Of a stretch of DNA of 45,357 nucleotides, positions 7,310 to 25,656 are shown one piece after another. Source of the stretch: Anaerolineales bacterium. GTDB taxonomy: Bacteria > Chloroflexota > Anaerolineae > Anaerolineales > UBA4823. Both the position numbers and the translations under genes were made by a program. Within the stretch, counting starts at the first letter, position 1. Each line of letters starts with the position of its first letter. The stretch is from positions 1 to 45,357 of the forward strand of contig JBFENN010000003.1 of NCBI GenBank assembly GCA_041551115.1, read 5' to 3'. Below the pieces are notes generated by a model. The model was not told where the DNA came from. It saw nothing but the letters and a program-made list of their open reading frames with translations, and searched no databases.

Positions 7310-9085
7310 ATGAACACTGAGAACCGTATACAAAAACAGCTGGAGTTGCTATATGGAGAGGAAGCCAACCGAAAAATCTGGGTTGACCTAAAACAACAAT
7401 TACAAAACTTCAAGAGAAAGTACCCGGTTCCAAGTGGCAGAAAATATGAGATTAGCGAAAAGGACATCGTACTAATAACTTATAGTGACCAATTTAAGGA
7501 AGTAACCCAAACCCCATTACAGTCACTTAATAATTTTTTAAATAGATATTTGCTGGGGGTTATCAACAGTGTTCATATCCTGCCTTTTTTCCCATATTCA
7601 TCAGATGATGGATTCTCTGTGATAGACTTCAAACAAGTTGATCAGAAACTAGGGAATTGGCATGACGTCAATAATTTGGCAAACTCTTTCCGTCTTATGG
7701 TAGATCTCGTGATCAATCACGTATCCAGCCAAAGTGATTGGTTTCAAAAATTCCTCAAAGGAGACAAGACACACCTAGATTTCTTCATCACTGCACATCC
7801 AGACTCAGATCTATCCAAGGTCGTTCGACCGCGCGCCTTACCTCTTCTTACCAAAGTACAAACAAATGCTGGAATAAAGTATGTCTGGACTACCTTCAGC
7901 ACAGATCAAATTGATCTAAACTATAAAAATCCTGAGGTATTGATCGAAGTTATCGATATTCTGCTTCGTTATGTCGCTAATGGTGCAGAGATCATCCGCC
8001 TTGATGCTATCGCTTACCTGTGGAAGGAGATTGGCACATCCTGCATCCACTTACCTCAAACGCATGCGGTTGTAAAGCTGCTGCGCGCTATCCTGGATGA
8101 GGTGGCTCCTGGGGTTATCCTCATTACAGAGACGAATGTCCCTCATCAAGAGAATGTGAGTTACTTTGGTTCTCAGCTTGGGGACAATAAACAGCGCGGA
8201 GATGAAGCCCAATTGGTATACCAATTCCCATTAGCACCACTCGTACTACATGCTTTCTATTCGGGTGATGTAACGGCTTTAAGAGAGTGGGCAAGTGATA
8301 TATCTACCCCATATCTGCAATCACACTTCTTCAACTTTATCGCATCACACGATGGGATTGGATTACGACCAGCAGAAGGCCTACTTACCCAAGATCAGAT
8401 CCAGGATTTGGTTAATTCGACGCTGCAACATGGAGGACAAGTCTCCTATAGATCAAATCCCGATGGCTCCAAAAGTGTATATGAGCTTAATATCACCCTG
8501 TATGACGCGCTTAACGATCCAAAACTTCCAATGCCTGACATCGACGTGCAGCGTTTTCTCGCATCTCAAGTAATTATGCTTTCGCTAGCAGGCATACCTG
8601 GAGTATACGTTCACTCGCTTTTTGGTTCTTCTAATTGCGACCACTGTGTCACTGAAACAGAACGTCTACGGTCAATCAATCGTGAGAAATTTGATTTTAA
8701 TAAATTGATTAAGACATTGAATAATCCAACCTCACGTGCGGCGCGAGTATTCAATGCTTATCGGAAACTGCTGCGTATTCGTAGGGATCACAGTGCTTTT
8801 CATCCCCAGGGTAAACAACGGGTTCACAATCTGGGCGGGGATATATTTGCAATGACCAGAGTTGCACCTGACGAGAGTGAGTACATTCTATGCGTTGTCA
8901 ATATATCTGATACCACAACGGAATACTCTCTCCACCTACCAACGGAAAGGATACTCTATGCTCCGGAGTGGGTTGATTTGATCGGTGGTGGTGAGATTCA
9001 TGCTGAAAAAGATAGACTACCAATAATGTTACTCCCATATCAATATGCTTGGTTAGTCCCCGTAAACGAATCCATAAATAAGTAA
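7310..9085 (+). CDS. GH13_18 sugar phosphorylase, probably glucosylglycerate phosphorylase (YcjM-like)
   Basis: 'HILPFFPYSSDDGF', nucleophile 'RLDAIAY', acid/base 'ITETNVPH', 'SHDGIG', loop 'YELN'. Glycerate kinase lies immediately downstream. Confidence 0.85.
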   Translation: MNTENRIQKQLELLYGEEANRKIWVDLKQQLQNFKRKYPVPSGRKYEISEKDIVLITYSDQFKEVTQTPLQSLNNFLNRYLLGVINSVHILPFFPYSSDDGFSVIDFKQVDQKLGNWHDVNNLANSFRLMVDLVINHVSSQSDWFQKFLKGDKTHLDFFITAHPDSDLSKVVRPRALPLLTKVQTNAGIKYVWTTFSTDQIDLNYKNPEVLIEVIDILLRYVANGAEIIRLDAIAYLWKEIGTSCIHLPQTHAVVKLLRAILDEVAPGVILITETNVPHQENVSYFGSQLGDNKQRGDEAQLVYQFPLAPLVLHAFYSGDVTALREWASDISTPYLQSHFFNFIASHDGIGLRPAEGLLTQDQIQDLVNSTLQHGGQVSYRSNPDGSKSVYELNITLYDALNDPKLPMPDIDVQRFLASQVIMLSLAGIPGVYVHSLFGSSNCDHCVTETERLRSINREKFDFNKLIKTLNNPTSRAARVFNAYRKLLRIRRDHSAFHPQGKQRVHNLGGDIFAMTRVAPDESEYILCVVNISDTTTEYSLHLPTERILYAPEWVDLIGGGEIHAEKDRLPIMLLPYQYAWLVPVNESINK

Positions 9086-9103
9086 AATCATCGGATAAAT
9101 ACA

Positions 9104-10489
9104 TTGGATAGAAATATATTTTGGACTAGATCTCTCCGGGCCGCCAGAAAGGGGAAAGATGTTGTCCAAATCTTGGCGGCTGCCATAAACGCCGTCGATC
9201 CAAAAAAGGCTGTACAGCAGCATTTACGAAGATCCGGCAACAAACTGATCATTTCTGGAATTAATTCTCAGGAACTTTCGATTAACCTATCCGATTTCAA
9301 CTATATATTCATGGTGGCAGTTGGTAAAGCAAGTATCCCAATGGCGGGCGCGCTGGTCGGTATTCTTGCAGAAAAGCTGACGAGTGGGATCATCCTATCA
9401 AAAGATGGGCTACATAGCCATGAAGTCGACTTGCCTGCAAGCTTAAAGTTGTACCGGGCTGCTCACCCAATACCGGATGAACGAGGTGTACTGGCGACTC
9501 AGCAGATTACTGCCCTTTTAAAACAGGCTGGTGTTAACGACCTGGTATTCCTGTTGGTGTCTGGAGGAGCATCTGCCTTATTAACTTCACCAGCCGACGG
9601 TCTCACCCTCCTTGATTACCAACAGCTGACAGAAATCTTGTTGAACTCAGGGGCAAACATTAATGAATTGAATACGCTCCGCAAACATATTGATATTGTC
9701 AAGGGAGGTGGTCTTGCGCGGATTTCTCACCCTGCAAGATTGATTTCATTGATCTTGTCGGATGTGATCGGCGACCCAATAGACGTTATTGCTTCTGGTC
9801 CTACTACACCAGATCCAACAACTTTTTTTCAGTGCTCACAGATCATCGATAATTACGGCATTACTTCTAGAATACCGATAAGGATTTCAAGCCTCTTGTC
9901 CGCTGGGATTGTCGGGGAAGTCATAGAGACTCCAAAGCAAGGAGATGCGATATTCCACCGGGTAAATAATTTCATCATTGGCAACAACTGGATATCAGCT
10001 GAAGCCGCCTGTGAACAAGCCAAGCAAGCCGGCTTCAACAGCATGCTGCTAAGCACCCATCTGCAAGGTGAGGCAAGACAAGCAGGACAATTCATCGCAG
10101 CGATCGCCAAACAGATAGCTTCACTCAACCAACCGATCAGCCGCCCAGCATGCATCGTCATTGGGGGTGAAACAACAGTGACCGTCACCGGGAATGGTCT
10201 CGGTGGGCGCAATCAAGAACTTGCTCTAGCAGCAGTATGTCAGTGTGCAGGACTCAAGGACGTTGCGATAGTGACATTAGCTACTGATGGGGAAGATGGG
10301 CCAACCGATGCTGCCGGTGCTGTTGTAACTGGTGCATCATTGTCAGAAGCAGCTGAACTTGGATTGACAACAGCCGACTATTTGCGAGATAACGATTCAT
10401 ATCATTTCTTCAAAGCTTTGGGAGATCTGATCATCTCTGGACCGACAAATACAAATGTAAATGATCTATCATTCATATTTGCTTTCTAG
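9104..10489 (+). CDS. Glycerate 2-kinase (class II, TtuD/MOFRL family)
   Basis: 'AVGKAS', 'HPIPD', 'SGGASAL', 'SDVIGD', 'GGETTV', 'GGRNQE', 'TDGEDG', 'GPTNTNVND'. TTG start is uncertain. Confidence 0.92.
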   Translation: MDRNIFWTRSLRAARKGKDVVQILAAAINAVDPKKAVQQHLRRSGNKLIISGINSQELSINLSDFNYIFMVAVGKASIPMAGALVGILAEKLTSGIILSKDGLHSHEVDLPASLKLYRAAHPIPDERGVLATQQITALLKQAGVNDLVFLLVSGGASALLTSPADGLTLLDYQQLTEILLNSGANINELNTLRKHIDIVKGGGLARISHPARLISLILSDVIGDPIDVIASGPTTPDPTTFFQCSQIIDNYGITSRIPIRISSLLSAGIVGEVIETPKQGDAIFHRVNNFIIGNNWISAEAACEQAKQAGFNSMLLSTHLQGEARQAGQFIAAIAKQIASLNQPISRPACIVIGGETTVTVTGNGLGGRNQELALAAVCQCAGLKDVAIVTLATDGEDGPTDAAGAVVTGASLSEAAELGLTTADYLRDNDSYHFFKALGDLIISGPTNTNVNDLSFIFAF

Positions 10490-10626
10490 GATTTGAGCAG
10501 TTTGGTCAAGATCAGGGAAATTGTAGCGGTCCAATCAAATTACCCATCTAGATCCAAAATGTGTAGAGGCAATTAGAGATACAGTTGGAAGTATTATGGA
10601 ATTAAAGTGCAGATGATTTTAGACAT

Positions 10627-11568
10627 GTGATGAGCTATCAACCAGCATACACACGTTTACTAGATACCGACATCCTTGCAGAGCGCGCCGAGCAAGCACA
10701 CAATCATCTCAGCAATTGCGACTTGTGCGGCCATGAGTGTGGTGTCGACCGGTTGGCTGGCATTCGCGGTATTTGCCAGACCCTGGAACACGCACGGATT
10801 AGCAGCTATGGTCCTCATCATGGAGAGGAGGACCCTTTACGCGGCTGGCGTGGTTCGGGAACAATTTTTTTCACTCGCTGCAATCTGCACTGCCAGTTTT
10901 GTCAAAATCATGATATCAGCCAGACCGATCAGGGAAAGGAAATCAAAGCAGATGAACTGGCAGCGATCATGCTGACACTACAAAGTTATGGCTGCCATAA
11001 CATTAATCTCGTCTCTCCAAGCCATGTCGTTGTGCCTATTCTTCGGGCAGTTGGAATCGCTGCTCAAGCAGGCTTGCGAGTCCCAATTATTTACAATTCG
11101 GGTGGATATGATTCGATCGCTGCACTTAATCTTCTCGAAGGGGTTATTGATATCTATATGCCGGACATGAAATATGCCAATCCGCGCACAGGTCTTCACT
11201 ACTCGAAGATCCGCAATTATCCACAAATAAACCAGGCTGCGGTTAGAGAGATGCATCGACAGGTTGGGGACTTGAGGATCAATGATGAAGGACTCGCGAC
11301 TAGCGGATTATTAATTCGACATCTCGTCCTGCCGAATGGCTTGGCTGGCAGTGAACAAATAGTCAAATTCCTGGCTGAAGATATTTCACCAAACACGTAT
11401 GTCAACCTGATGGACCAGTACCGGCCCGCGTTTAAAGCCAACCAATACCCAAAACTGAAGCGGCGAATTACCCCTGCTGAATACCAACAAGTTGTCCAGC
11501 TAGCAAACGAGGCTGGATTACAACGTTTAGACAGCCGGCGCGCAGCCCACAAGAAGGTTGATTTTTGA
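10627..11568 (+). CDS. Radical SAM protein, PflX-like (uncharacterised Fe-S protein)
   Basis: CxxxCxxC 'CNLHCQFC', N-terminal 'CDLCGHEC', 'PHHGEE', 'IYMPDMKY', 'RHLVLP'. Confidence 0.88.
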   Translation: MMSYQPAYTRLLDTDILAERAEQAHNHLSNCDLCGHECGVDRLAGIRGICQTLEHARISSYGPHHGEEDPLRGWRGSGTIFFTRCNLHCQFCQNHDISQTDQGKEIKADELAAIMLTLQSYGCHNINLVSPSHVVVPILRAVGIAAQAGLRVPIIYNSGGYDSIAALNLLEGVIDIYMPDMKYANPRTGLHYSKIRNYPQINQAAVREMHRQVGDLRINDEGLATSGLLIRHLVLPNGLAGSEQIVKFLAEDISPNTYVNLMDQYRPAFKANQYPKLKRRITPAEYQQVVQLANEAGLQRLDSRRAAHKKVDF

Positions 11569-11618
11569 TATATCAGATTCGAATCCATCGACTAATCACT
11601 GTGATTTTCTATGAGCCC

Positions 11619-11646
11619 TTGACACTTTTTCAAGCGATGGTAAACT
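11619..11646 (+). promoter_or_regulatory. Promoter of the proS leader
   Basis: TTGACA (11619-11624), 16 bp, extended -10 TG-G-TAAACT (11641-11646). Confidence 0.7.
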
Positions 11647-11656
11647 TCTAGACGTA

Positions 11657-11719
11657 ATGTTGAGTAACAGTATGCATCTTCTAAGCCCGTGCCTGTTCCC
11701 ACCTAGCCGCATGCCATAA
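11657..11719 (+). CDS. Putative Pro-rich leader peptide of proS (MLSNSMHLLSPCLFPPSRMP*)
   Basis: Manual translation gives 20 codons with 4 Pro in the last 10 (CCG, CCA-CCT, CCA). It lies between the promoter and a terminator upstream of proS. Alternative ATG at 11672. Confidence 0.6.
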   Translation: MLSNSMHLLSPCLFPPSRMP

Positions 11720-11775
11720 TTGGCTTTCGGTATCTCAGGCACTGGTAGGGAAAGCAAACGCTCCCAGCTCGTGAA

Positions 11776-11812
11776 CGCCCTCTGGACTGAAAGCCAGAGG
11801 GCGATTTTCTTT
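11776..11812 (+). terminator. Intrinsic terminator (attenuator) in the proS 5' leader
   Basis: CGCCCTCTGG-ACTGAAAG-CCAGAGGGCG followed by ATTTTCTTT, about 100 nt before the proS ATG. Confidence 0.8.
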
Positions 11813-11910
11813 CAAGTATGTCCGATTATTAGCATTGATATATATCCAGTGAAGGTCCTCTATCTGTGTTAAGATAAACAGCCGCTAACATATCAACTAA
11901 GGAGGATATT

Positions 11911-13683
11911 ATGCGAATGTCACAACTCTTCGGCCAAACCCTGCGGGAAGCCCCAGCGGATGCTGAAATCCCCAGTCACAGATTACTAGTCCGAGCCGGC
12001 TTCATCCGTCAGCTTGCCGCCGGGATCTTTACCGTGATGCCGCTAGCCCACCGCTCAATTACAAAAATTGAGAACATCATGCGGGATGAGTTGAACGCTA
12101 TCGGTGGTCAGGAGATGACCATGCCGGTTGTCCATCCAGCAGAGATCTGGCAGGAAACCGAACGCTGGTACCAGATTGGATCCGAGATGGGGCGCTTTAA
12201 AGACAAGAATAACCGAGATATGGTACTCGCCATGACTCACGAAGAAGTTGTCGCTGATATAACACGCACAGAAGTCCAATCCTATCGACAGCTGCCGCGC
12301 CTCATCTATCATATTCAGACTAAGTGGCGTGATGACCCGCGCCCGCGCGCCGGACTGATCCGTGTTCGGGAGTTCACGATGAAAGACAGCTACAGCCTGG
12401 ATATGGACTGGGAAGGGCTGGATAAACAGTACCGCAACCACTACCAGGCATATTTCAACATCTTTCACCGCTGTGATATACCCGTGACAGCGGTTAGATC
12501 AGACGTCGGCATGATGGGTGGTAAGCTGGCCCACGAATACATGTACTTAACAGCTGTCGGAGAGGACACGTTACTGTTGTGCGATAACTGCGGCTATGGC
12601 GCCAACAGGCAAATAGCGCGCTTCCGGAAAAATGAAAACCCACCTGAAGATTTGAAACCAATAAAAAAGGTAGCTACACCTGATACGAAAACGATCGAAA
12701 GTTTAGCCAAACTGCTTAATGTTCCAGAATCAAGAACTGCCAAAGCCGTATTCATGATCGCTGACATTCCGGAAGGAACTGATACGATCGAACGGTTTGT
12801 ATTTGCTGTCATTCGTGGTGACATGGATGTGAATGAAACCAAACTAACGAATGCAATAAAAGCGAAAGCCATGCGACCAGCTACCGAAGAAGAGATTGCA
12901 TCGGTTGGCGCTGTTCCTGGATATGCATCCCCGGTTGGGTTGAAAGATGTTGTGGTCGTCATTGATGATGCGATCCCACAATCACCAAATTTAGTTGCTG
13001 GTGCCAATGAAACTGGCTATCACTTGATGAATGTTAATTATGAGCGCGATTACACAGCAGATATTATTACGGACATCGCTTCCGCTCAAGAAGGTGATGC
13101 TTGCCCGGACTGTGGATCGGATCTCCGAACGATCCGCGGGGTTGAGGTAGGCAATATTTTCAAACTTGGGACTCGGTATACTGAAGCCATGGGGAGCTAT
13201 TTCCTGGATAGGGATGGGCAGGAAAAGCCAATTATCATGGGATCATATGGGATCGGGAGCGGTCGTTTAATAGCATGTGTTGCAGAAGAGCACCATGATG
13301 ATTTGGGTCTGATTTGGCCGATAACCGTTGCGCCATACGAGATCCATTTGGTTGCCCTTTCTGGGCGCGGCACCAGCGAAACCCTTGAAGATGCTGAGAA
13401 ATTATACGCTGAACTGGAAGCCGCTGGATACGAAATTCTTTTCGATGATCGCGATGAGAGCCCGGGAGTAAAATTCAATGATGCCGATTTGTTGGGCATG
13501 CCCATTCGCTTGACGGTCAGCGACCGTGCACGATCGCAAGGTGGGGTGGAATATAAACGACGTGATAAACAGGAAAAAGAGATCATCCCTAGCGGAGATG
13601 TGGTCAAGCGCATCTCCGAGGAGATAAACCAAATGCATGCTGAGATTCAAGCTAAGGTAGTGTCGATACCATATGACGGGTGA
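11911..13683 (+). CDS. proS: Proline--tRNA ligase (bacterial type with insertion/editing domain)
   Basis: SD AAGGAGG, 'THEE', motif 2 'RPRAGLIRVREFTMKDSYS', 'GIEVG'-like 'GVEVGNIFKLG', 'MGSYGIG', anticodon domain 'PGVKFNDADLLGMP'. Confidence 0.98.
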   Translation: MRMSQLFGQTLREAPADAEIPSHRLLVRAGFIRQLAAGIFTVMPLAHRSITKIENIMRDELNAIGGQEMTMPVVHPAEIWQETERWYQIGSEMGRFKDKNNRDMVLAMTHEEVVADITRTEVQSYRQLPRLIYHIQTKWRDDPRPRAGLIRVREFTMKDSYSLDMDWEGLDKQYRNHYQAYFNIFHRCDIPVTAVRSDVGMMGGKLAHEYMYLTAVGEDTLLLCDNCGYGANRQIARFRKNENPPEDLKPIKKVATPDTKTIESLAKLLNVPESRTAKAVFMIADIPEGTDTIERFVFAVIRGDMDVNETKLTNAIKAKAMRPATEEEIASVGAVPGYASPVGLKDVVVVIDDAIPQSPNLVAGANETGYHLMNVNYERDYTADIITDIASAQEGDACPDCGSDLRTIRGVEVGNIFKLGTRYTEAMGSYFLDRDGQEKPIIMGSYGIGSGRLIACVAEEHHDDLGLIWPITVAPYEIHLVALSGRGTSETLEDAEKLYAELEAAGYEILFDDRDESPGVKFNDADLLGMPIRLTVSDRARSQGGVEYKRRDKQEKEIIPSGDVVKRISEEINQMHAEIQAKVVSIPYDG

Positions 13684-13698
13684 GACTATTTATCACTG

Positions 13699-13729
13699 CG
13701 GGACTCTAGTTTCAGAGTCCCGTTTTTTT
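13699..13729 (+). terminator. Intrinsic terminator after proS
   Basis: CGGGACTCT-AGTTTC-AGAGTCCCG followed by T7. Confidence 0.9.
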
Positions 13730-13750
13730 CGGTAGTAATTATCATTACTC

Positions 13751-14278
13751 TTATGATTTATCCAGCTCATCGTGCAGTGATGCATGGATTTCATCACTGT
13801 GATGTTCAAGTTCAGTGAGAAGCTCATCTGGAATATCAACCGTCATGATATCCGAACTAAACTCCCCAATTTGATCATGAACAACCTGCACTTTGGTATC
13901 ATCTACTACAACCAGCAGCGCAGAAGTAGATGGTTTCAATGCAGCAACCAACTGGTTTACCTGCTCGGCCGATATGCGGCTGTCACGCTGTTTCCGCCCG
14001 ATGATTCCTCCAATGAGTCCGCCCAAGGCACCTAACACCAAGGCTAAACCGCCTGTCAGCACACCTACCAACGCTCCCAAGGCTAATCCCCCTACAGCAC
14101 CCTTAGCGGGAGTCATTCCGACATCTTTATATATAACCCGACCTTGATCATCTTTTTGGACAACTACTGCGCCCTGGATGTGCCGCTTTTCTTCTGATTT
14201 CAACTTGCCAAGTGTTGCCTCGCCCGCATCTATTTCATCGAAGAAGGCGATCAATATCCGTATTTTTTCATCAGTCAT
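13751..14278 (-). CDS. DUF1269-like membrane protein with glycine-zipper segment
   Basis: 'AVVVQKDDQGRV', 'GAVGGLALGALVGVLTGG...GALGGLIGG', 'LKPSTSALLVVV'. Confidence 0.75.
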   Translation of the reverse strand: MTDEKIRILIAFFDEIDAGEATLGKLKSEEKRHIQGAVVVQKDDQGRVIYKDVGMTPAKGAVGGLALGALVGVLTGGLALVLGALGGLIGGIIGRKQRDSRISAEQVNQLVAALKPSTSALLVVVDDTKVQVVHDQIGEFSSDIMTVDIPDELLTELEHHSDEIHASLHDELDKS

Positions 14279-14359
14279 TAGCTTTTTCCTTGATTTTCAA
14301 CTTCTTAATGGTCTATACCTTTCAGCGTAGATTTAATACACTTTGTCTGTTAATGATTC

Positions 14360-14396
14360 AAAAATCGAGGCATAATTTGTTATTATATGCCTCGAT
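14360..14396 (-). terminator. Probable terminator of the beta-oxidation operon
   Basis: ATCGAGGCATA (14364-14374) / TATGCCTCGAT (14386-14396) stem, followed by a short T-run on the minus strand, just after the SCP2 stop. Confidence 0.65.
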
Positions 14397-14419
14397 GATA
14401 ATTAGGCTGGCATAATCTG

Positions 14420-14749
14420 TTAACCCATCTTGAAGAAAGTTGTCAGCTTCATAGCCAGGTTGAGGTCACCCGCAAGCTTAAGCTTGCCTTTCATAAAGTA
14501 CTGCATACCATTGACATTTCCAAGTAGAACATCCTTGAAATCTTGCGCGTCTGCAGTAAGCGTCATCTTCGGAGATTCAGAAACCCCTTCAGCGACTGTA
14601 CATTTCCCGTCTTTGATATTAACGATCCAATCACCCCCCTCATCACCGGTCAGGTGATATTGGATAATAGCCTCTACCCCTTCTGCTTCATCTGGTTTAA
14701 ATGCCTTTTCATGGTTCCGCACAAGCTGTGCAACTGTTATATCTGCCAT
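14420..14749 (-). CDS. SCP2 sterol/lipid-binding domain protein
   Basis: 'IQYHLTGDEGGDW', 'MKGKLKLAGDLNLAMKL'. ATG 14749 fits the AGGAGA SD better than TTG 14758. Confidence 0.88.
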   Translation of the reverse strand: MADITVAQLVRNHEKAFKPDEAEGVEAIIQYHLTGDEGGDWIVNIKDGKCTVAEGVSESPKMTLTADAQDFKDVLLGNVNGMQYFMKGKLKLAGDLNLAMKLTTFFKMG

Positions 14750-14854
14750 TTTTTCCAATCTCCTGTGATGAATTTATATGTGTTTATCAGCAAGTTATTT
14801 GCATAACTATCGATTTATTACGAAGCGATCTGTCATATTTCAGAATGCTGGTTA

Positions 14855-16057
14855 TCAGTTCAAGCTTTCGAATATACCCGCGGCACCCATCCCACCGCCA
14901 ATGCACATCGTTACTAGACCATACTTTATATCCCGCCGTTTCATTTCATAGATCATTTGTGTGGTCAGTTTAGCACCTGTACAACCTAATGGGTGACCCA
15001 AAGCTATAGCTCCACCATTCACATTGGTGATTTCCTCGTCCAATTCTAATTCACGCATCACAGCTATCCCTTGAGCGGCAAAAGCCTCGTTCAACTCCAC
15101 CAACCCAATTTCCTTCAATGATAAGCCAGCCAGGGCAAGGGCTTTCGGAACGGCAGCAATTGGTCCGATGCCCATCACCTCGGGTGGCACGCCGCCAACT
15201 GCATAGGAGACGAAACGAACCAGTGGCTGGTGGCCAATTTCCTCCGCCTTTGCACGCGACATAATGACCACACCCGCAGCACCATCCGACATCTGGGATG
15301 AATTGCCTGCGGTAACAGTTCCGCCATCTTTAAATACCGGTCGTAATTTCGCCAGAGCTTCAAGACTAGTATCGGCGCGTGGACCTTCATCTTGGGTGAA
15401 GATATACTTGCTTTCTTTGGGTTTACCGTTGTCACCGCTCGCCAGTGTGTTTACCTCGACCGGAACGATCTGTGGTGCGAAAAGATCTGATTCTAGGGCT
15501 GCGATCGCTTTCATATGGCTCCGATAAGCAAACGCATCTTGGTCACCTCGGCTGATACCGTATTGTTCAGCCACATTCTCAGCGGTCAACCCCATATTGG
15601 TGTATGCTTGCGGGGAATTTTCCGCTAAGTATGGGTTGGGTGAATATTTTAACCCCCCCGTCAGCGTTGGTACCATTGTCATCGATTCAGTTCCTCCTGC
15701 GACAGCGACATCGTAATAACCGGCCGAAATCATTGCTGCAGCGTGGGCGATGCTCTGGAGCCCAGATGAACAGAATCGGTTGATCGTTTCGGCTGGTACA
15801 GATACAGGCAAGCCAGCTCGAATCGCTACCATACGAGCTATATTCATACCTTGCTCACCCTCCGGGAACGCACACCCGAGGATGACATCATCGATATCTT
15901 CCGGCTTCAACTCAGGAACTCGTTTCAAGAGATCTTGGATAACCAATGCGGCTAGCTCATCTGGACGAGTGGTTTTCAAACTTCCCCGCATGGCTTTTCC
16001 AATTGCTGTCCTGGCAGCAGCTACAATTACTGGTTCTCGTGCTGGATCTACTTTCAT
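14855..16057 (-). CDS. fadA: Acetyl-CoA C-acyltransferase (3-ketoacyl-CoA thiolase)
   Basis: '[10 protein letters not shown]', 'NEAFAAQ', 'GHPLGCTG', 'MCIGGGMG'. Start set at ATG 16057 after SD AAGGGAG. Confidence 0.95.
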
Positions 16058-25576: not shown

Positions 25577-25651
25577 CGGGGCGTGGCGCAGTCCGGCTAG
25601 CGCGCTTGCATGGGGTGCAAGAGGCCCTGGGTTCAAATCCCAGCGCCCCGA
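25577..25651 (+). tRNA. tRNA-Pro (anticodon GGG), CCA not encoded
   Basis: Acceptor stem CGGGGCG/CGCCCCG plus discriminator A, D stem GCGC/GCGC, anticodon arm CTTGC-ATGGGGT-GCAAG, T arm CTGGG-TTCAAAT-CCCAG. Confidence 0.97.
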
Positions 25652-25656
25652 CTCAG

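Follow-up and report, generated by a model that had tools for sequence, protein, structure and literature searches.

A predicted proline-specific leader-peptide attenuator in front of proS in Anaerolineales

The stretch of DNA analyzed here (the window; 45,357 nt of contig JBFENN010000003.1 from an Anaerolineales bacterium, forward strand) very probably carries a ribosome-mediated transcription attenuator of the trp type that is specific for proline, senses Pro-tRNAPro, and controls the proS gene behind it. The case is built on the parts of the leader, their conservation in relatives, a constraint on Pro codons, covariation in three helices, a link to ProRS genes, and analogous leaders with Lys or Arg codons; a response of proS to proline is what this arrangement would predict. 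The features of the locus are as follows.

11619..11624, + strand: -35 hexamer TTGACA (promoter consensus scan)
11638..11646, + strand: extended -10 element, TG-G-TAAACT (promoter consensus scan)
11657..11719, + strand: predicted leader peptide uORF of 20 codons, MLSNSMHLLSPCLFPPSRMP* (ORF list, translation)
11687..11704, + strand: putative regulatory Pro-codon cluster, CCG at 11687-89, CCA at 11699-701, and CCT at 11702-04 (read from the sequence)
11707..11715, + strand: region 1 (CCGCATGCC), inside the uORF, predicted 5' strand of the anti-antiterminator (covariation, RNAalifold)
11721..11731, + strand: region 2 (TGGCTTTCGGT), shared strand whose partner would be region 1 or region 3 (covariation, folding)
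11740..11773, + strand: hairpin of variable, nonconserved sequence that spaces region 2 from the terminator (predicted fold only)
11776..11812, + strand: predicted intrinsic terminator with arms 11776-11785 and 11794-11803, followed by a T-rich run (terminator scan)
11786..11796, + strand: region 3 (ACTGAAAGCCA), terminator loop and first 3 nt of the 3' arm, predicted 3' strand of the antiterminator (covariation)
11900..11905, + strand: Shine-Dalgarno sequence AGGAGG of proS (read from the sequence)
11911..13683, + strand: proS, bacterial-type proline--tRNA ligase with editing domain (Pfam, NCBIfam)

The promoter has a 16-nt spacer, 10/12 consensus matches, and the TG of an extended -10 element, and it ranks best among seven sites in 11300-12100, where shuffled sequences yield 0.7. 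The ATG of the uORF lies 10 nt past the -10 box and lacks a Shine-Dalgarno sequence; all four Pro residues of the 20-codon frame fall among its final 10 codons, the fourth (CCA at 11714-16) directly before the stop. The terminator hairpin at 11776-11803 comprises 10 pairs, eight of them G-C, around a loop of 8 and is followed by ATTTTCTTTC; alone it is worth -20.2 kcal/mol, and the duplex of regions 2 and 3 (11 bp, one G-U) is worth -17.6 kcal/mol. A preliminary description of this DNA had named the promoter (11619-11646), the 20-codon uORF with its four late Pro codons, the 11-bp pairing of 11721-11731 with 11786-11796, and the 10-bp terminator with its U-tract (11776-11812), and each of these was recovered in place. 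The same description had called the gene behind the leader proS, an identification borne out by Pfam and by a score of 701.7 bits (cut-off 558) against the NCBIfam proline--tRNA ligase model PRK09194.

Comparison covered the DNA before proS at 28 loci from related genomes and 80 public ones, the closest public records with this ProRS being MAGs titled Anaerolineales, Anaerolineae, or Chloroflexota. Many of the compared leaders have the same order of parts, namely promoter, ATG 6 to 10 nt on, P-x-P-x-P ORF, the motif GGCTTTCGG, and terminator. The promoter is almost invariant, with TTGACA and the 16-nt spacer common to most of 59 related leaders, and the in-frame start lies 6 to 11 nt after the -10 box in 53/59. 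From this near invariance and the fixed start distance, we infer that the transcript encoding the peptide is leaderless or almost so. A covariance model, R1, was built from 33 aligned leaders (alignment A2) that span the Pro cluster through the T-run; its structure comprises the terminator and the helix of regions 1 and 2, and its E-values are rough. On the window's own genome (87% complete), R1 gave one match, at 11688-11810 with 87.2 bits, besides a 20.9-bit reverse-strand echo of the terminator. Counted in samples, in which misses in incomplete genomes are not absences, R1 matched 97/137 genomes, 41/55 genera, and 37/46 high-quality genomes of the family, nearly always once and strongly per genome, 22/151 genomes in an even sample of the order (mostly from three families), and, in an even sample of the class, gave three weak matches among 150 other genomes. 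The R1 sequence family therefore appears mainly restricted to a few families within a single order. Weak R1 matches in genomes G100 and G071 (E about 3e-4) were set aside as ordinary terminators or unrelated leaders.

The best 30 loci of the family all lie directly before a ProRS gene, which is of bacterial type in 25 and of archaeal type (Pfam ProRS-C_1) in 5. One genome (G008) has an archaeal-type ProRS gene followed by a bacterial-type proS, and one genome holds two copies of the element, each preceding a proS-like gene. Since it stands before both types of ProRS, the element follows the function of prolyl-tRNA synthesis rather than a single lineage of genes. In the window's own genome, only the bacterial type of ProRS was seen. 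In some genera, the archaeal-type ProRS gene sits immediately upstream of a bacterial-type proS as one putatively leader-controlled pair (archaeal-type ProRS pairs at L123:1674-3113, L032, L033, L058, L121, L127, L128, and L130).

Codons and helices were counted on an R1 alignment (A3) of 67 matches, 61 of them distinct and 59 of Pro type. In the uORF frame, 57/59 leaders have an ORF that starts with ATG, is at least 10 codons long, and runs through the Pro cluster; the two alternative frames have such an ORF in 6 and 10 leaders. Of the two leaders lacking it in the uORF frame, one has a GTG start and the other a one-base alignment gap. The preliminary description had made its model depend on conservation of the uORF in relatives, and the uORF is conserved, Pro codons included. 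Pro occupies codons 0, +2, and +4 in 45, 53, and 56 of 57 relatives, respectively, but codons +1 and +3 in 0/57 and codon +5 in 2/57. All four CCN codons are used, as at +2, where CCC occurs 13 times, CCT 14, CCG 11, and CCA 15. Selection on codon identity, not on RNA sequence, would predict just this combination of third-base freedom and a six-base period. In a strict census, in which a terminator and a P-x-P-x-P uORF were both required in 103 distinct proS upstream regions, 32/103 were positive and none on the reverse complement, while 0 to 2 were found with Ala, Gly, Ser, Thr, Arg, Leu, or Val instead of Pro. The window's own leader was not picked up by this strict P-x-P-x-P census: its peptide has Pro at 0, +4, +5, and +9, Leu at +2, and hence a Pro-Pro pair at +4/+5, and its uORF reads as a slightly degenerate member of the family. 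As in trp-type attenuators, the leader ORF, which is predicted to be translated, is enriched in codons for the cognate amino acid. At the best-conserved regulatory codon (+4), CCT is used in 44/56 leaders.

Region 1 pairs with 11722-11730 (7/9 pairs in the window). Over 61 leaders, this helix is 81.8% paired, with changes on both sides in 6/9 pairs, and RNAalifold independently predicts part of it; the terminator is 95.7% paired over the same leaders, with 5 pairs changed on both sides. These two helices together show 11 pairs changed on both sides, compared to 5.4 in shuffles (0/500 shuffles reach 11), and controls with slid partners are 33 to 53% paired; because the sequences are related, significance is inflated here, as in all of the covariation and duplex controls. 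The antiterminator is 82.5% paired over the 61 leaders (25 to 64% when slid) and 74.9% paired in alignment A2. Subject to the same inflation, cognate region 2:3 duplexes have a mean of -15.7 kcal/mol, compared to -13.1 for non-cognate (0/5000 permutations) and -7.1 for shuffled duplexes, and region 1:2 duplexes have -11.0 when cognate and -9.7 kcal/mol when non-cognate (1/5000 permutations). Individual compensations can be read in the alignment: region 2 TTT changed to TTC pairs with loop GAAA changed to GGAA, and CGG to CGA accompanies CTG to TTG between region 2 and region 3. The leaders share the motif GGCTTTCGG before the terminator, and the terminator of related leaders, GCCCTCTGGACTGAAAGCCAGAGGGC, has a conserved loop, which is unusual for a plain terminator. 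In leaders with longer loops, GAAAGCC lies wholly within the loop, outside the stem, yet it is kept, which makes sense only if it is paired with GGCTTTC. In several leaders, inspection by eye also suggests that the tract of Pro codons could pair with G-rich sequence behind region 2, a possible further helix that does not form part of the model.

Covariation supports the view that the three helices (1:2, 2:3, and the terminator) would be mutually exclusive alternatives, and exclusivity of antiterminator and terminator would follow from their shared bases and topology. The comparison of these two stems across relatives that had been proposed beforehand found both conserved with covariation. As in trp-type attenuators, an intrinsic terminator is predicted between the leader ORF and the gene, and region 1, which overlaps or follows the regulatory codons, is predicted to pair with the antiterminator strand, the footprint distances being those we infer for a stalled ribosome.

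Folding with and without a ribosome footprint, also proposed beforehand, switches the structure of the window RNA as the attenuation model predicts. In the unmasked RNA 11657-11796, region 2 is paired with region 1 (6/9) and not at all with region 3, and the full unmasked leader forms the terminator (10/10 pairs). Removal of everything 5' of 11717, as for a ribosome waiting at 11699-11704, yields region 2:3 pairing (9/9), and removal of everything 5' of 11732, as for a ribosome at the stop, yields the terminator. When the structures are forced, the antiterminator has -31.1 and the terminator -33.1 kcal/mol; the former is about 2 kcal/mol less stable, and read-through would therefore need the antiterminator to form first, by kinetic trapping. 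Among the 61 leaders, the terminator forms in 57 as full naked RNA and in 60 when region 2 is masked, and region 2:3 pairing forms in 59 when region 1 is masked. The full-length minimum-energy fold with region 1 masked still contains the terminator in 43/61. Naked RNA cut after region 3 prefers 1:2 pairing in 29/61 leaders and 2:3 pairing in another 29, and for this RNA the order of synthesis has to be invoked in the folding model.

We propose that transcription starts at AUG 11657 or a few bases before it and that the leader would be translated without a Shine-Dalgarno sequence. When charged tRNAPro is plentiful, the ribosome would reach the stop at 11717 and cover region 2 (11721-11731), the terminator at 11776-11803 would form, RNA polymerase would stop at the T-run, and little proS mRNA would be made. 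Were the leader left untranslated, region 1 (11707-11715) would pair with region 2, and termination would ensue as well. When Pro-tRNAPro is scarce, the ribosome would wait at the Pro codons at 11699-11704 with its footprint over region 1, so that region 2, once freed, could pair with region 3 (11786-11796) as soon as region 3 emerges; the terminator hairpin could then not close, and polymerase would read into proS. The preliminary description had likewise held that masking at the stop leads to the terminator and stalling to the antiterminator, on which masked folds and covariation agree, but it missed region 1: the strand that it took to be left free by stalling would be released from an anti-antiterminator (11707-11715:11722-11730), as in the trp leader. 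A stalled ribosome would reach about a dozen bases beyond the A site. Among the points against the model, only the last Pro codons lie so close to region 1 that a ribosome stalled on them would cover it, and the C-rich Pro codons could partly serve RNA pairing. The alternation of Pro and non-Pro codons plausibly avoids EF-P-dependent polyproline stalls. Four RNA libraries were examined over 11300-13800 as low-depth assembled contigs, in which no starts, ends, levels, or regulation are readable, and a contig from one library bridges 11742-11988, across the terminator into proS.

R1 also matches, from model position 18 on, leaders without the Pro cluster. Lys-type leaders occur in nine genomes of the order (G028, G633, G495, G574, G186, G549, G202, G524, and G619) and score 27.7 to 44.8 bits. 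Their promoter, start distance, regions 1 (AACCGCAAGCC-like) and 2, and terminator are the same, but KKAKK, KNKKAKK, KVKK, or KKVKK replaces the Pro codons at codons +1 to +5. These Lys-codon leaders (L165 [G028:C12], L201-L208, and L180) lie just before the gene for LysX of the aminoadipate lysine pathway (NCBIfam 349 to 361 bits, cut-off 275.6, three tested), which in G028 is followed by a homocitrate-synthase-like gene. Judged by their sequences, the lysX leaders are homologous to the predicted proS attenuator and would constitute a natural codon swap; regulatory codons matched to the amino acid that the following gene deals with are the signature that leader-peptide attenuation would be expected to leave. 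Arg-rich uORFs (e.g., SRNRRPNTRPPDRRSG) with terminators precede argC (L197:1501-1630) and argG (L198:1501-1624) in two other Anaerolineae genomes and are likely candidates for arginine leader-peptide attenuators. It seems reasonably likely to us that Anaerolineales possess one homologous leaderless scaffold that is re-aimed by swapping only the regulatory codons (P-x-P-x-P before both ProRS types, K-K-x-K-K before the lysX operon) and in which Pro/non-Pro alternation is a design for reporting Pro-tRNAPro without EF-P-dependent polyproline stalling.

T-box riboswitches control proS in Firmicutes. Like the leader proposed here, a T-box (RF00230) responds to whether its cognate tRNA is aminoacylated and prevents termination ahead of synthetase genes; the difference is that a T-box binds the tRNA directly, whereas the proS leader would sense it through the ribosome. 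The preliminary description had named a T-box as a finding that would speak against it, and none was detected in 11500-12000 at E up to 10, nor was any other Rfam family, bar a chance 14-bit snoRNA match; T-box identity is thereby ruled out for the proS leader. With Rfam 15 at the gathering threshold, the only match in the whole window is a tRNA at 25577-25651. The same genome has six T-box-like matches with E-values of 1e-7 to 1e-17, on other contigs only (C69, C95, C93, C249, C20, and C14; loci L113-L118), four of which precede valS, pheS, trpS, and serS. All six fall below the Rfam gathering score of 93 bits, a cut-off that may be too strict for this lineage.

An alternative hypothesis is that the same attenuator reads not the charging of tRNAPro but a general difficulty in forming Pro-Pro bonds (translation stress or EF-P activity). 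Consecutive prolines stall ribosomes, which EF-P rescues, according to the available text of PMC4176338, and both the window and a genus-mate carry a Pro-Pro pair (FPPS and IPPT, respectively). We consider this improbable, as the Pro codons of the family alternate (Pro at +1 and +3 in 0/57, at +5 in 2/57), so that the consecutive-proline motifs that need EF-P are avoided, as the element goes with ProRS genes, and with two unrelated types of them, and as Lys codons before lysX in the sister scaffold fit the sensing of a cognate aminoacyl-tRNA. A leader that binds a protein or a tRNA, through ProRS autoregulation or as a non-T-box tRNA sensor, would make the open frame incidental. For such a leader, the conserved, single-stranded-looking motifs GGCTTTCGG and GAAAGCC could be binding sites, but they covary with each other, and although T-box-like leaders do serve elsewhere in the same genome, no Rfam family matches at 11500-12000. 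The frame, moreover, is open in one register only (57/59 versus 6 and 10), its Pro codons vary freely in their third base with a six-base periodicity, the distance between the -10 box and its start codon is fixed, and a Lys-codon swap accompanies a lysine gene, all of which makes a binding leader very improbable.

We give slightly less credence again to a nascent peptide that senses free proline in the ribosome tunnel and arrests, as TnaC does. The C-terminal part of the peptide is indeed conserved, with Arg at +7 in 50/57 and then often Lys-Pro, and the window's peptide ends in Pro-stop. However, codons +7 to +9 are exactly region 1, which covaries with region 2, and they would be conserved because they form this pairing; the position of the stop and the length of the peptide vary widely among the leaders (15 to >30 residues); and a ribosome arrested close to the stop would mask region 2 and favor termination, the wrong direction for a synthetase gene. 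A chance ORF beside an ordinary terminator, with no regulatory role, is scarcely credible: short frames are common here (87 ORFs of at least 20 aa in 9000-15000), but chance would have to account for conservation in 41/55 genera, covarying helices, 0/103 hits on the reverse complement, and a terminator placed between a strong promoter and an essential gene.

In pheST, synthetase genes are under leader-peptide attenuation, the same class of target as proS. Like the Escherichia coli trp and pheST attenuators, the proS leader combines a short ORF containing cognate codons with an intrinsic terminator, has regions 1:2, 2:3, and 3:4 as alternative helices, and places the stop just before region 2. 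It differs from them in its proline signal, its proS target, and its phylum, Chloroflexota, and in a uORF that lacks a Shine-Dalgarno sequence and starts at or near the 5' end. In addition, region 3 consists of the terminator loop together with the beginning of the 3' arm, not of the 5' arm, and the regulatory codons alternate as P-x-P-x-P, whereas the known ones are consecutive.

The available text of Seliverstov et al. 2005 (PMC1262725) names pheST as a leader-peptide-controlled synthetase target and gives candidate attenuators before trpS and leuS in Streptomyces, and that of Naville and Gautheret 2010 (PMC2965389) gives a His leader before hisS paralogs in bacilli. As presented there, these are likewise predictions of attenuation by comparative genomics for synthetase genes outside Proteobacteria; they differ in concerning other amino acids and other phyla. 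The terms proS, prolyl, and proline are absent from the main texts of both papers, and Chloroflex- is absent from the main text of PMC2965389. In Salmonella, mgtP (mgtCBR) and mgtL (mgtA) are short ORFs rich in Pro codons, as here, that increase transcription of the genes behind them under conditions predicted to lower charged tRNAPro (available text of PMC3641672), and the mgtA leader uses Rho (available text of PMC12856214). These enterobacterial leaders differ in their targets, Mg2+ transport and virulence, and in their RNA structures, and no sequence relation is expected. Leaderless polycysteine short ORFs of mycobacteria are described in title and abstract as cysteine-responsive attenuators (bioRxiv 10.1101/834739); at that level of description, they resemble the proS leader as leaderless short ORFs whose amino-acid-specific codons attenuate the following operon and differ in using Cys instead of Pro, in belonging to Actinobacteria, and in having other targets. 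A 2016 survey of leader genes mentions Chloroflexi, in its available text, only as a group with too few genomes (PMC4833913). Searches of the freely accessible full-text literature found no proline leader for proS; the preliminary description had known of none either, and such an attenuator has apparently not been described before.

Proline and proS would thus join the short list of amino acids and genes under leader-peptide attenuation, and the mechanism would be placed in Chloroflexota, with two ways of reading tRNA charging, T-box-like and leader peptide, side by side in one genome. The Pro and Lys versions of the scaffold would amount to a natural codon-swap experiment and could supply a compact part for amino-acid-specific switches, and the alternating Pro codons could help to distinguish tRNAPro supply from EF-P-dependent stalling. 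With the R1 covariance model, the small ORF and its RNA can be annotated in about 100 uncultivated genomes.

Other proS leaders of Anaerolineales have unrelated RNA sequences (L061, L073, L076, L077, and L083; L014, L103, L107, L109, and L110; L043, L049, L052, L056, and L063), and the R1 family is therefore only one of several proS-leader solutions in the order. Two further unrelated types again have a P-x-P uORF and a terminator, and one unrelated type is an approximately 50-nt leader with a terminator and no uORF. Elsewhere in the window, a weak terminator-like hairpin of 5 pairs with a T-run (11543-11560, + strand) overlaps the final codons of the upstream radical-SAM gene (10627-11568), and a tRNA-Pro gene with anticodon GGG lies at 25577-25652 (+ strand), 14 kb downstream of the attenuator.
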